Below are positions 5,826-9,019 of a stretch of 64,000 nucleotides of DNA, piece by piece; within the stretch, counting starts at the first letter, position 1; every line of letters begins with the position of its first letter. This DNA is from Escherichia coli. GTDB lineage: Bacteria > Pseudomonadota > Gammaproteobacteria > Enterobacterales > Enterobacteriaceae. Location of the stretch: assembly GCF_003334405.1 (NCBI RefSeq), contig NZ_QOWM01000001.1; one strand, written 5' to 3'. Made by a program: the position numbers and the translations under genes. The notes beneath the pieces were generated by a model, which saw only the letters and a list, made by a program, of their open reading frames with translations, was not told the DNA's origin and made no database searches.

Positions 5826-5890
5826 GTGAGGAGACAGGAATTGCCGGAAATAGTAGTCTGCTAAGTGAAGCGCATCAGGCAATTTCGCAA

Positions 5891-5950
5891 ATCGCAGATA
5901 GCAAAAAAGCGCCTTTAGGGCGCTTTTTTACATTGGTGGGTCGTGCAGGA
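5891..5950. repeat. 60-bp direct repeat, copy 1: terminator hairpin plus last 17 nt of tRNA-Lys (no full tRNA)
   Basis: Appears identical to 6047-6106 by manual comparison; after ...tggtgggtcgtgcagga the sequence diverges from tRNA-Lys. Confidence 0.6.
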
Positions 5951-6046
5951 TGACTCGCTTCGCTCGCCCTTCGGGCCGTCGCCGCGAGCGGCTCCGTTGT
6001 TTCGCTGCGCTCAACTCAAACCTGCTGCAGGTTCGAATCTTTGAGT

Positions 6047-6106
6047 ATCGCAGATAGCAAAAAAGCGCCTTTAGGGCGCTTTTTTACATTGGTGGGTCGT
6101 GCAGGA
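6047..6106. repeat. 60-bp direct repeat, copy 2: lysV terminator plus 3' end of the intact tRNA-Lys
   Basis: Same 60-mer as 5891-5950; overlaps the 3' end of tRNA-Lys at 6090-6165. Confidence 0.6.
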
Positions 6107-6165
6107 TTCGAACCTGCGACCAATTGATTAAAAGTCAACTGCTCTACCAACTGAGCTAACGACCC
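6090..6165 (-). tRNA. lysV: tRNA-Lys (anticodon UUU)
   Basis: Reverse complement reads GGGTCGTTAGCTCAGTTGGTAGAGCAGTTGACTTTTAATCAATTGGTCGCAGGTTCGAATCCTGCACGACCCACCA; 76 nt with encoded CCA. Confidence 0.95.
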
Positions 6166-6168
6166 GAG

Positions 6169-6244
6169 TGGTGGGTGATGACGGGATCGAACCGCCGACC
6201 CCCTCCTTGTAAGGGAGGTGCTCTCCCAGCTGAGCTAATCACCC
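6169..6244 (-). tRNA. valU: tRNA-Val (anticodon UAC)
   Basis: Reverse complement reads GGGTGATTAGCTCAGCTGGGAGAGCACCTCCCTTACAAGGAGGGGGTCGGCGGTTCGATCCCGTCATCACCCACCA; 3-nt spacer to tRNA-Lys. Confidence 0.95.
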
Positions 6245-6261
6245 CCGCTGTGTGGAGTCGC

Positions 6262-6289
6262 ATTATAGGGAGAGTTCAAAATGAGTCAA
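6262..6289 (-). promoter_or_regulatory. Candidate sigma70 promoter of the tRNA-Val/Lys operon
   Basis: On the minus strand TTGACT, 16-nt spacer, TATAAT, then a GC-rich discriminator (GCGACTCC), about 20 nt upstream of tRNA-Val. Confidence 0.45.
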
Positions 6290-6502
6290 CGCATTTTCTA
6301 AAGAAATTGTTCGTTCGTCGTAAATTTAAGCAAGATGATCGCAAAACAGACCGTGTTGCGCAATTTGTCAACGAAAACAATAATGCGTAAGGTAGAAACC
6401 CGAACTACATTGAGGAATCAGGCGGGAGTGATAGAATATCGCCCACTTAATTTTTCCAGGATTTGCCGGTTGTCGGCATCTTTCTAAACGTAAGGCCATT
6501 TC

Positions 6503-7918
6503 ATGAAAATCAAAACTCGCTTCGCGCCAAGCCCAACAGGCTATCTGCACGTTGGCGGCGCGCGTACTGCTCTTTACTCCTGGCTTTTTGCACGTAACCA
6601 CGGCGGTGAGTTCGTGCTGCGTATTGAAGACACCGATCTTGAGCGTTCCACGCCGGAAGCTATCGAAGCCATTATGGATGGCATGAACTGGCTGAGCCTG
6701 GAGTGGGATGAAGGTCCGTACTACCAGACCAAACGTTTTGATCGCTACAACGCGGTGATCGATCAGATGCTGGAAGAGGGCACTGCTTATAAATGCTATT
6801 GCTCTAAAGAGCGCCTGGAAGCGCTGCGCGAAGAGCAAATGGCGAAAGGTGAGAAGCCGCGTTATGACGGTCGCTGCCGCCACAGCCATGAGCATCATGC
6901 TGATGATGAACCGTGTGTTGTACGTTTTGCTAACCCGCAGGAAGGTTCTGTTGTTTTTGACGATCAGATCCGTGGTCCGATCGAGTTCAGCAACCAGGAA
7001 CTGGACGATCTTATTATCCGCCGTACCGATGGTTCCCCAACCTATAACTTCTGTGTGGTTGTCGATGACTGGGATATGGAAATCACCCACGTTATCCGTG
7101 GCGAAGACCATATCAACAACACGCCACGCCAGATCAACATTCTTAAGGCCCTGAAAGCGCCGGTGCCGGTTTACGCGCACGTTTCTATGATCAATGGCGA
7201 TGACGGTAAAAAACTGTCCAAACGTCACGGGGCAGTCAGCGTAATGCAGTATCGTGATGACGGTTATTTGCCAGAAGCACTGCTGAACTATCTGGTGCGT
7301 CTGGGCTGGTCCCACGGCGATCAGGAAATCTTCACTCGTGAAGAGATGATCAAATACTTCACTTTGAATGCCGTCAGCAAATCTGCCAGTGCGTTCAACA
7401 CCGACAAGCTGCTGTGGCTGAACCATCACTACATTAACGCGCTGCCGCCGGAGTATGTTGCTACTCACTTACAGTGGCACATTGAGCAGGAAAATATCGA
7501 TACCCGTAACGGCCCGCAGCTGGCTGATCTGGTGAAACTGCTGGGCGAACGCTGCAAGACGCTGAAAGAGATGGCACAGAGCTGCCGTTATTTCTACGAA
7601 GATTTTGCTGAGTTCGATGCCGACGCCGCGAAAAAACATCTGCGTCCGGTAGCGCGTCAGCCGCTGGAAGTGGTTCGTGACAAACTGGCCGCGATTACTG
7701 ACTGGACCGCTGAAAACGTTCATCACGCTATTCAGGCGACGGCGGATGAGCTGGAAGTGGGTATGGGTAAAGTTGGTATGCCGCTGCGTGTCGCCGTAAC
7801 CGGTGCGGGGCAGTCTCCAGCACTGGATGTTACCGTTCACGCAATTGGTAAGACCCGCAGTATCGAGCGTATCAACAAAGCGCTGGATTTTATTGCTGAA
7901 CGCGAAAATCAGCAGTAA
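6503..7918 (+). CDS. gltX: Glutamyl-tRNA synthetase
   Basis: 471 aa; class I HIGH-type motif ([15 protein letters not shown]) and KMSKS-type motif (KLSKRHG). Confidence 0.97.
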
Positions 7919-7938
7919 TTAGCGTGTAAAAAGATAAA

Positions 7939-7968
7939 CGGCAGGAGATAATATCCTGCCGTTTTTTA
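7939..7968. terminator. Rho-independent terminator between convergent gltX and yfeD
   Basis: Hairpin cggcaggagataatatcctgccg followed by a T-run. Confidence 0.6.
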
Positions 7969-7969
7969 T

Positions 7970-8362
7970 TTATGCTGATTCGTCAATATCGAGACGGGCG
8001 AGGAAATTGCGAATTCCTTCACGTGACAAAAATTGCGCGACTTTTTCCTGCTCAATGTCTGTCATATTATCTATCGCGTTGATGATTTGTCGATACGCCG
8101 GGGCGCGTGCTCCAGGAGCGTATTCAGCAATTCTCTCTTCAGCTTCCATCAACATTGGTGTGTTATGGAAGGCTGGCGTGTTCTGAATAAACTCGCAAAC
8201 TTGCGTATCGACCAGAATAAGTCTGGCACGACCGCCTTTCACGCCGGGAAATTTTTCCGTTTTCCAGCCTTTTTCTCTGATCCAACGGTTAACAGTTTGT
8301 TTAGCCACACCGAGGCATTCAGCCAGTTCTTCGGTGGTCATTTTATTGCGTAATCTTTTCAT
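7970..8362 (-). CDS. yfeD: Small putative HTH DNA-binding protein (DUF1323-like)
   Basis: 130 aa; paralogous to the adjacent yfeC (shared T-EELA...QT-N-W-R-GW...PGV-GG-ARL pattern). Confidence 0.82.
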   Translation of the reverse strand: MKRLRNKMTTEELAECLGVAKQTVNRWIREKGWKTEKFPGVKGGRARLILVDTQVCEFIQNTPAFHNTPMLMEAEERIAEYAPGARAPAYRQIINAIDNMTDIEQEKVAQFLSREGIRNFLARLDIDESA

Positions 8363-8363
8363 A

Positions 8364-8723
8364 TTATTTGCTATCGCGAATCCCTAAGCGTTGTAACAAT
8401 CCGATAATCCCTTCCCGCAGAAGCAAGGATGTAAACTGTTTTTGTTCAACTGGCGTCATCTCTTTCGCCAGTGTCACCAGCAATACTTCAAGCGGCGCAT
8501 CACCAGAAAGGGCAGGCGCTTCTCCCTGACCTTCTGGACGTTCAGCATTGCGAATATATTCACGAACCTGTTCATTGACGTGAACCAGTCGGGCTTTGCC
8601 ACCCTGGACGCCAGGTTTTGGTGACGTTGTCCAGCCTTCCTTGCGTACCCATTTATTAATGGTCTGGCGGCTATAGCCGGTCAGTCTGGCAAGTTCATCT
8701 GGTGTCATCCTCTCCTTGAACAT
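8364..8723 (-). CDS. yfeC: Small putative HTH DNA-binding protein (DUF1323-like)
   Basis: 119 aa ORF per track; tandem paralogue of yfeD, 1-nt gap between them. Confidence 0.82.
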   Translation of the reverse strand: MFKERMTPDELARLTGYSRQTINKWVRKEGWTTSPKPGVQGGKARLVHVNEQVREYIRNAERPEGQGEAPALSGDAPLEVLLVTLAKEMTPVEQKQFTSLLLREGIIGLLQRLGIRDSK

Positions 8724-8882
8724 AACAATTCCCTGAATGTATGTGGGTCTATTAGTAGTTCATTTTATAACACCACTTTACAGGAAACCGTGACATGAAT
8801 AACTACTGAATGCGAGCGGTTTTCCAAAATTGTTCATTTGCCTGATTTTTCAGCGATTGAAACTACACGTTGCAATTTGCCG

Positions 8883-8911
8883 TTGACACATTCGGGCGGA
8901 ATTCATATGAT
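8883..8911 (+). promoter_or_regulatory. Candidate sigma70 promoter for tRNA-Ala
   Basis: TTGACA, 17-nt spacer, TATGAT, then GC-rich discriminator GCCGCCC; about 30 nt upstream of the tRNA. Confidence 0.5.
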
Positions 8912-8943
8912 GCCGCCCGTCAACTCGACAAGCTTTACGTGAC

Positions 8944-9019
8944 GGGGCTATAGCTCAGCTGGGAGAGCGCTTGCATGGCATGCAAGAGGTCAGCGGTTCG
9001 ATCCCGCTTAGCTCCACCA
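8944..9019 (+). tRNA. alaX: tRNA-Ala (anticodon GGC)
   Basis: GGGGCTATAGCTCAGCTGGGAGAGCGCTTGCATGGCATGCAAGAGGTCAGCGGTTCGATCCCGCTTAGCTCCACCA; single copy in this window. Confidence 0.95.

Follow-up and report, generated by a model that had tools for sequence, protein, structure and literature searches.

The single tRNA-Val and the single tRNA-Ala found at the valU/valX/valY and alaW/alaX positions in this stretch of Escherichia coli DNA (the window, 64,000 nucleotides of contig NZ_QOWM01000001.1) are most probably an artifact of assembly, in which identical tandem repeats were collapsed into one copy each. Judging from the sequence comparisons, we give this reading a probability of about 85%, and in the genome itself the usual Val-Val-Val-Lys and Ala-Ala arrays are probably present. 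The reading is based on sequence facts, on population frequencies and on the behavior of short-read contigs. As an observation on the sequence, the single-copy layout is real, and it is a rare state, not a matter of chance. The original prediction had proposed two alternatives, real copy-number variation between strains or collapse during assembly; both states do occur, and this window favors collapse.

Both ARAGORN and Rfam detected exactly one tRNA-Val(UAC), directly upstream (in the sense of transcription) of tRNA-Lys(UUU), and exactly one tRNA-Ala(GGC), divergent from yfeC, which bears out the gene counts that had been read from the letters. Apart from these, the 64 kb contain one tRNA, a tRNA-Arg(CCT) at 49113-49187. 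With regard to their predicted elements (promoter, tRNA, terminator), both operons are structurally intact. The features of the two loci are the following:

5891-5951, minus strand: distal copy of a 61-base direct repeat (second terminator), adjoining the end of xapR
5934-6059, minus strand: RtT-like element between both terminator copies; its 3' end is a tRNA-Lys 3' fragment
6047-6107, minus strand: proximal copy of the 61-base direct repeat, made up of a Rho-independent terminator hairpin with a short tail, preceded by the 17 final bases of tRNA-Lys
6090-6165, minus strand: tRNA-Lys(UUU) in the lysV position (ARAGORN, Rfam)
6166-6168, minus strand: Val-Lys spacer, GAG on the plus strand and CTC on the tRNA strand, the same as the valZ-lysY junction of the lysT operon
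6169-6244, minus strand: the single tRNA-Val(UAC), standing where K-12 has valU/valX/valY, with the valU leader on its 5' side and a 3' flank that leads to tRNA-Lys
6262-6289, minus strand: promoter-like site of the Val-Lys operon, 17 bases upstream of tRNA-Val (TTGACT, 16 bases, TATAAT; 11 of 12 positions, a consensus match only)
6503-7918, plus strand: gltX (glutamate--tRNA ligase), divergent from the Val-Lys operon; mapped from the annotation of strain HNSQ2209 and read from the sequence
7970-8362 and 8364-8723, minus strand: yfeD and yfeC, transcribed away from the Ala gene; coordinates transferred from strain HNSQ2209
8883-8911, plus strand: promoter-like site of the Ala operon (TTGACA, 17 bases, TATGAT; consensus match at 11 of 12 positions)
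8944-9019, plus strand: the single tRNA-Ala(GGC), replacing alaW and alaX; upstream flank of alaW type, downstream flank of alaX type
9027-9050, plus strand: terminator-like hairpin and T run 3' of tRNA-Ala

The K-12 layout given in the original prediction, valU-valX-valY-lysV and alaX/alaW, coincides with the annotation of NC_000913.3, and alignment with this reference leaves the window short of two Val units and one Ala unit. In K-12 MG1655 (NC_000913.3, 2,518,041-2,521,328) the gene order (xapR, tRNA operon, gltX, yfeD, yfeC, Ala genes, pdeA) and the tRNA sequences are the same as in the window, and the promoter regions and the terminator/RtT block also match. The reference differs in presenting three Val and two Ala genes instead of one of each, CTTC instead of CTC before tRNA-Lys, and A instead of G in the first terminator. 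When aligned with MG1655, P13-6, VG48B2 and Z1323HEC0011, the window lacks exactly 242 bases at the Val locus, corresponding to two Val units and their 44- and 46-base spacers, and exactly 115 bases at the Ala locus, corresponding to one Ala unit and its 39-base spacer. The absent spacers are:

valU-valX: ACTACTTTATGTAGTCTCCGCCGTGTAGCAAGAAATTGAGAAGT
valX-valY: CTTTCTCGCCAGCTAAATTTCTTGTAAAAATGTGAAGTACCGAAGT
alaW-alaX (39 bases): AATTTTGCACCCAGCAAACTTGGTACGTAAACGCATCGT

The Val-Lys locus sits where the valU operon belongs, between xapR and gltX, and retains the leader and promoter of valU, as seen on alignment with MG1655, BW25113 and P13-6, but it holds one Val(UAC) gene in place of three in tandem, and CTC in place of the locus-specific CTTC junction. 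Likewise, at the alaW-alaX locus there is one Ala(GGC) gene in place of two split by their spacer.

The breakpoints of both missing segments fall within identical 76-base tRNA sequences, and the loss of whole units with such breakpoints does not separate a real deletion from a collapse. Breakpoints of this kind, with both operons left intact, would also fit a real loss, in which one Val and one Ala gene are truly present and recombination or slippage between the identical 76-base copies removed the other units, a reading that we consider rather unlikely. E. coli strains have been described as differing by one tRNA gene copy more or less (PMC4539685), and deletion of the entire valUXY-lysV unit is possible (PMC11480407). 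The deletions published in the latter suggest that a reduced copy number would be tolerated, so that a real deletion is biologically possible; this and the intact operons count against collapse.

The most telling detail is one that the original prediction did not notice, namely the presence of variants derived from a paralogous operon. The lysT operon, located 1.7 Mb away at another chromosomal locus and under another leader, has identical Val(UAC) and Lys(UUU) genes, a valZ-CTC-lysY junction and, 3' of lysQ, a terminator/RtT/terminator block with the same G-type base as the window. In all, a K-12-like genome should contain five Val(UAC) and six Lys(UUU) genes. The Val-Lys locus of the window carries both variants: the CTC of valZ-lysY and, at position 6058, a C (G on the tRNA strand) of the type found downstream of lysQ, where the closest relatives have T. 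Of these variants, CTC alone is diagnostic; it was not found as a natural valY-lysV allele in multi-Val genomes among the best matches. The G at 6058 was weakened as a standalone marker of artifact and also counts against collapse, being a natural allele in many multi-Val genomes. A real deletion would be expected to leave the remaining Val copy with the flanks of its own locus, and here the 3' flank is the CTC of the paralog.

To account for CTC and G, a real loss would have to be accompanied by ectopic gene conversion from lysT valZ-lysY after a double-strand break, or by a one-base deletion plus a natural allele. A single conversion tract from a K-12-type lysT operon was tried and rejected, since it cannot yield the order Val-CTC-Lys-terminator: in that operon lysY is followed by a 146-base spacer, with no terminator directly after it. 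As CTC-Lys and the terminator lie apart in it, the sequence found in the window is a mosaic of two separate lysT parts and the valU leader.

The collapse reading was also examined at the level of k-mers. Compared with the relative's own locus alone, the Val-Lys locus of the window showed 28 novel 21-mers; when the lysT operon was added, no novel k-mer was observed up to k=77, and the first one appeared at k=78. At the Ala locus, the k-mers of a normal genome spell everything up to k=82, with the first novel one at k=83, and there is no paralog-type signature, which this test confines to the Val-Lys locus. Up to repeat length, then, an uncollapsed genome supplies every k-mer of both loci, as a collapse would predict. 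Furthermore, only three families of direct repeats exist in 76 kb of the relative. Both families with at least 76 identical bases are collapsed in the window, and the 61-base family is kept, with its copies made identical; that is, local repeats above a length threshold were hit and the shorter one was spared.

The two closest complete relatives show no mismatches with the window over 24.7 kb and carry three Val and two Ala genes, in an array Val-44-Val-46-Val-CTTC-Lys with an A-type terminator, which argues against a real loss. About 14 small differences separate the window from its relatives in 64 kb; two of them, the CTC spacer and the terminator G, fall in the Val-Lys locus at a distance of 108 bases from each other, and each changes it to lysT-operon sequence. 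A real loss would require three or four independent rare events within 3 kb, against about one SNP per 5 kb elsewhere relative to these genomes. Another close relative, UMNF18 (about 100% identical over 24.7 kb), has two Val genes and one Ala gene. Such a genome would fit a mixed origin, in which one array is truly reduced, for example to the single Ala that is natural in 2.7% of finished genomes, and the Val array was collapsed by the assembler; the confinement of the paralog-type signature to the Val-Lys locus points the same way. However, both closest relatives have two Ala genes, and the Ala locus is fully spelled by normal-genome k-mers to k=82; we regard the mixed origin as very improbable.

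With respect to other candidates, the possibility that the window is K-12 with its repeats collapsed was ruled out, given that it is without the insertion of about 1.35 kb of K-12-like matches and has private SNPs. BL21(RP) was dropped as a normal B-lineage reference, as it is rearranged at the locus. The T at 9189 is private, with no match in any RefSeq complete E. coli genome; it is of no phylogenetic help and makes a draft assembly likely.

To place these states in the population, 5,426 complete E. coli genomes were considered as the finished set. A single Val at the locus was present in 26 of them (0.5%), and both Val-Val spacers in 5,042. The Ala-Ala spacer was found in 5,278, which leaves at most 148 (2.7%) with a single Ala, a state about five times as frequent as the single Val, which would also suit the mixed origin. 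Copy numbers thus vary among finished genomes (three, two or one Val; two or one Ala), even within the K-12 laboratory lineage, where Val is 3 in MG1655, 2 in BW25113 and 1 in TG1. The 26 single-Val genomes span unrelated backgrounds, which suggests recurrent events. At least four genomes, from 23 of the 26 listed, combine both single states (the true number may be up to 7), above the independent expectation (binomial p=0.005). The variation in copy number, the unrelated backgrounds and the excess of genomes with both single states speak for a real loss, and the occurrence of single-copy states in "complete" genomes of many backgrounds counts against collapse. The rarity of these states in the finished set, for its part, favors collapse.

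The four genomes listed with one Val and one Ala, as in the window, are HNSQ2209 (NZ_CP137737.1), TUM2826, FP4 and TUM14668, the first being collinear with the window across 3.6 kb. Unlike the window, HNSQ2209 and TUM2826, both read directly, keep the CTTC spacer, and the terminator of HNSQ2209 is also of the A type; the diagnostic query for CTTC has a 100% match in FP4 and TUM14668. CTTC, with the A-type terminator, is what a simple within-array deletion would be expected to leave in single-copy finished genomes, and the window differs from it in CTC and G. The CTTC junction is in fact present in K-12, in every multi-Val genome read and in 24 of the 26 single-Val genomes. Val-CTC-Lys at the valU locus was restricted to 2 of the 5,426 genomes, AS19 and STK78-E, and no finished genome among the matches listed joined it to a single Ala, which disfavors a real loss. 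AS19 shows that this junction may exist in a finished genome and, like the natural G allele, favors a real loss over collapse; however, "complete" genomes with odd layouts, such as STK78-E and BL21(RP), may themselves carry assembly errors. In a more specific form of the real loss, the minimal Val-Lys and Ala set would be real, and a double-strand break within the valU array would have found its repair template in lysT (valZ-CTC-lysY), with two Val genes lost in one step and CTC left as a scar. This repair seems to us quite improbable; if it were true, AS19 and STK78-E would be independent natural cases of conversion between both Val-Lys operons.

A very different picture was obtained from metagenome contigs. 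The metagenome loci comprised 80 of 93 stretches, mostly with SPAdes-style NODE names, of which 71 were informative for Val and 41 for Ala. Against the finished genomes, single Val was present in 24/71 (34% vs 0.5%; odds ratio 106, p=6e-34), Val-CTC-Lys in 8/71 (11% vs 0.04%; odds ratio 344, p=2e-14) and single Ala in 17/41 (41% vs 2.7%; odds ratio 25, p=5e-16). The Val forms of the window are therefore enriched 100- to 340-fold, a figure that may overstate the rate in isolate drafts, as metagenome assemblies may collapse more than isolate ones. Single Val and single Ala co-occurred on contigs (9/10 vs 8/25, p=0.003), which argues against the mixed origin, since a collapsed Ala array goes along with a collapsed Val array. 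Four long contigs (L020, L036, L054 and L090, the last a SPAdes-style contig of 361 kb) present the exact combination of the window, with valU leader, Val-CTC-Lys and one Ala, although they belong to different strains and to metagenome rather than isolate assemblies. That this combination is common in short-read contigs also weighs against a real loss. In two others (L052 and L060) the valU leader continues into lysT-operon spacers. An exact match to 6000-6262 of the window was not found among the metagenome loci.

Collapse is favored by the CTC and the terminator base, the k-mer test, the relatives with full arrays and the short-read enrichment; against it stand HNSQ2209, with the same layout, and the Val-CTC-Lys of AS19. 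If it took place, a de Bruijn graph assembler with k of about 77 or less may have fused all copies of each identical 76-base tRNA sequence into a single node and bypassed the loops formed by the short spacers of the tandem arrays. Among the parallel Val-to-Lys edges, CC (valT-lysW), CTC (valZ-lysY) and CTTC (valY-lysV), only CTC would have been kept, an edge that belongs to the lysT operon, 1.7 Mb off. The terminator blocks after lysQ and lysV are nearly identical, and their one-base difference would also have been merged. The resulting contig would then run through valU leader, Val, CTC, Lys, lysQ-type terminator and xapR at one locus, and alaW leader, Ala and alaX terminator at the other. 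The uncollapsed source would read leader-Val-ACTAC and Val-CTTC-Lys-ATGTAAAA.

The main value of this result lies in quality control, as draft assemblies do not give reliable tRNA gene counts where the genes lie in tandem arrays. In short-read contigs, about one valU locus in three and about 40% of the alaWX loci show a single copy, against 0.5% and 2.7% in finished genomes, and such counts would give a false picture of widespread tRNA gene loss. Simple markers of the artifact are a Val-CTC-Lys junction beside the valU leader and the lack of the three spacers, and the same markers could flag suspect regions in some "complete" genomes. If the single copies were real, they would represent ordinary, already documented copy-number variation, with a fitness effect that is probably small.

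Another aspect to mention is the RtT-like element, which reaches the gathering score of the Rfam family RF00391 (46.7 bits vs 45) with a full-length match to the model. As in the RtT RNA described for the tyrT operon, it adjoins the 3' side of a tRNA gene and has a tRNA 3' fragment at its end; unlike it, the element of the window follows tRNA-Lys instead of tRNA-Tyr, and its score is marginal. At the equivalent place in the relatives, PGAP annotates an "RtT sRNA".

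The window is a stretch of the E. coli chromosome, reversed in orientation with respect to MG1655, along which xapR, the Val-Lys tRNA operon (minus strand), gltX, yfeD, yfeC, a tRNA-Ala gene and pdeA follow one another. The tRNA genes were called with ARAGORN and Rfam, which agreed:

6090-6165, minus strand, tRNA-Lys(UUU), one copy (ARAGORN, Rfam)
6169-6244, minus strand, tRNA-Val(UAC), one copy (ARAGORN, Rfam)
8944-9019, plus strand, tRNA-Ala(GGC), one copy (ARAGORN, Rfam)
49113-49187, tRNA-Arg(CCT), argW, between dsdC and yfdC (tRNA call)

Both programs confirmed the single tRNA-Val before tRNA-Lys and the single tRNA-Ala by yfeC noticed in the original prediction, and the K-12 copies it named, valU-valX-valY-lysV and alaX-alaW, are indeed those annotated at the corresponding place of MG1655. 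The comparison with the K-12 reference that it proposed showed that two Val units and one Ala unit are absent from the window. In the alignments (with MG1655, BW25113, UMNF18 and HNSQ2209), the loss amounted to exactly 242 bases in the Val array, that is, two Val units including spacers of 44 and 46 bases, and to exactly 115 bases in the Ala pair, one unit including its 39-base spacer. All Val copies share the same 76 bases, and the Ala copies likewise do not differ from one another, which makes the breakpoints invisible inside the repeats. What remains of both operons looks structurally intact, with a strong promoter-like site upstream of each (11/12 consensus matches); Ala is followed by a terminator, and Lys by a terminator/RtT-like block. 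In this block an RtT-like element (Rfam RF00391, 46.7 bits; 5934-6059 on the minus strand) is bracketed by the two copies of a 61-base direct repeat, at 5891-5951 and 6047-6107. The repeat consists of a terminator hairpin together with the final 17 bases of tRNA-Lys. K-12 also has this block downstream of lysQ, and in the lysT operon, the paralogous Val/Lys tRNA operon about 1.7 Mb away, every spacer from Lys to the next gene has a related element ending in a tRNA-Lys 3' fragment.

To establish how frequent single copies are, 5,426 complete E. coli genomes were searched with spacers that exist only between two adjacent copies. At least one Val-Val spacer was present in 5,400 of them, both in 5,042, and the Ala-Ala spacer in 5,278. 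An independent 160-base diagnostic query, to which only a single-Val genome can give one unbroken match, found 26 genomes, exactly those without any Val-Val spacer. The joint state was sought with a chimeric query (Val diagnostic, inert filler, Ala diagnostic); among the 23 of 26 single-Val genomes listed, four were single at both loci (HNSQ2209, TUM2826, FP4 and TUM14668), the true number being at most seven. The backgrounds of the single-Val genomes are mutually unrelated, and even the finished K-12 laboratory lineage varies in Val number (MG1655 three, BW25113 two, TG1 one). Variation by plus or minus one tRNA gene has been reported among E. coli strains (PMC4539685). Genomes labelled complete include a few with single-copy states.

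Short-read assemblies behaved differently. A metagenome contig collection, in which many matching contigs bear SPAdes-style NODE names, was scanned for the valU leader plus Val; 80 of the 93 matching stretches were examined, and 71 were informative as to what comes after the first Val. With the caveat that repeat collapse may be commoner in assemblies from metagenomes than in those from isolates, single Val-Lys was seen in 24/71 short-read contigs (34%) against 26/5,426 complete genomes (0.5%; odds ratio 106, p=6e-34), Val-CTC-Lys in 8/71 (11%) against 2/5,426 (0.04%; odds ratio 344, p=2e-14), and single Ala in 17/41 (41%) against at most 148/5,426 (2.7%; odds ratio 25, p=5e-16). The two single-copy states went together: of the single-Val contigs 9/10 had one Ala, of the multi-Val contigs 8/25 (p=0.003). 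The exact combination of the window is carried by four contigs (L020, L036, L054 and L090, the last of 361 kb). In two others (L052 and L060) the valU leader, Val and Lys run directly into the lysY-lysZ-type spacer of the lysT operon, and both contigs look like chimeras of two loci that lie 1.7 Mb from each other.

The telling evidence lies in the sequence of the Val-Lys locus itself. Two of the few small differences from relatives fall inside it, 108 bases apart: the Val-Lys spacer is CTC, as at the valZ-lysY junction, instead of the CTTC of valY-lysV, and in the first of the terminator copies behind Lys a G, the base present downstream of lysQ, stands in place of the A of the closest relatives. 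The G alone says little, because it is also a natural allele at the valU locus of many multi-Val genomes. The CTC junction was absent from the multi-Val genomes among the best matches, and beside the valU leader it occurred in only two of the 5,426 complete genomes: AS19 (Val-CTC-Lys, no xap genes downstream) and STK78-E, an odd mosaic of Val-CTC-Lys, 135 nt of lysT-valT type and Val-CTTC-Lys, which also has IS4321 in yfeD. BL21(RP) has a lone Val adjoining yahG, without Lys. All three unusual valU loci come from genomes labelled complete and may reflect either true rearrangement or faulty assembly.

When compared with the closest relative's locus only, the Val-Lys region of the window held 28 novel 21-mers; with the K-12 lysT operon added, none remained at k<=77, and the first appeared at k=78. 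At the Ala locus novel k-mers began only at k=83. A normal three-Val, two-Ala genome thus has a k-mer graph in which, at k<=77, both loci of the window are valid paths; 77 is the largest default SPAdes k with reads of about 150 bases. In 76 kb of a complete relative, direct repeats of at least 45 bases belong to just three families, namely the Val array, the Ala pair and the terminator repeat of 61 bases. In the window, both families with at least 76 identical bases are collapsed and the 61-base repeat is kept, its two copies made identical (100%, compared with 98% in relatives), the pattern expected if the k-mer threshold lay between 61 and 77.

The original prediction left the choice between real copy-number variation and assembly collapse, and these data support that framing, with collapse the likelier branch: we put at about 85% the probability that the single Val and single Ala are assembly artefacts. 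Graph collapse alone would be one cause for all four changes, and some short-read contigs share the combination. A real loss is improbable, even though single copies and Val-CTC-Lys do turn up in a few complete-labelled genomes. Among these odd genomes, some (STK78-E, BL21(RP)) may themselves be mis-assembled, and a real origin requires a series of rare and independent events inside 3 kb (two Val units and one Ala unit lost, a spacer of paralog type gained and the terminator allele changed) in a genome otherwise showing only about one differing site per 5 kb from its relatives. A single gene-conversion tract from a K-12-type lysT operon was ruled out, since CTC-Lys there precedes a 146-base spacer and not a terminator. 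Moreover, the full combination was found in no finished genome, compared with roughly a tenth of the short-read contigs that span both loci. A mixture of collapse and real loss is the least credible reading by far.

The observed single copies are not a new biological feature; their value lies in a caution on tRNA gene counts from draft assemblies and in simple sequence markers to detect the collapse artefact. Should they be real, their effect would probably be slight. Deleting the entire valUXY-lysV unit has little impact on growth (PMC11480407), because the lysT operon has identical genes; total alaWX loss leads to growth defects (PMC11480407), but one Ala copy is still left in the window. 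The operon transcript is processed by RNase P (PMC4176162), and this would not obviously be disturbed, as the leader, the junctions and the terminator are each of a natural type.

Beyond the arrays, the window is near-identical to many phylogroup-A-like genomes. It is collinear across the whole 64 kb with P13-6; apart from the two tRNA-unit gaps, the differences between them are 12 SNPs and two indels, of 1 base and of 24 bases. The nearest two complete genomes, VG48B2 and Z1323HEC0011, each have Val-44-Val-46-Val-CTTC-Lys and two Ala genes. At 9189, 40 bases before the start of pdeA, the window has a private G to T change: T was found there in none of the 5,426 complete genomes, so that the window does not come from any RefSeq complete assembly and a draft assembly is its likely source. 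VG48B2, Z1323HEC0011 and others carry about 1,349 additional inserted bases, missing here, somewhere in 9300-34000; K-12 has IS186 near pdeA. The argW gene has no adjoining prophage in the window or in P13-6, at a site where K-12 carries a cryptic one. Finally, fadL (52850-54172, minus strand) shows an in-frame deletion of 24 bases (8 codons) at 53575 compared with P13-6, with TTGC microhomology at its borders; the site seems to be a variable loop region, since about 45 complete genomes have short alleles of the same length, with 3 mismatches over 241 bases.
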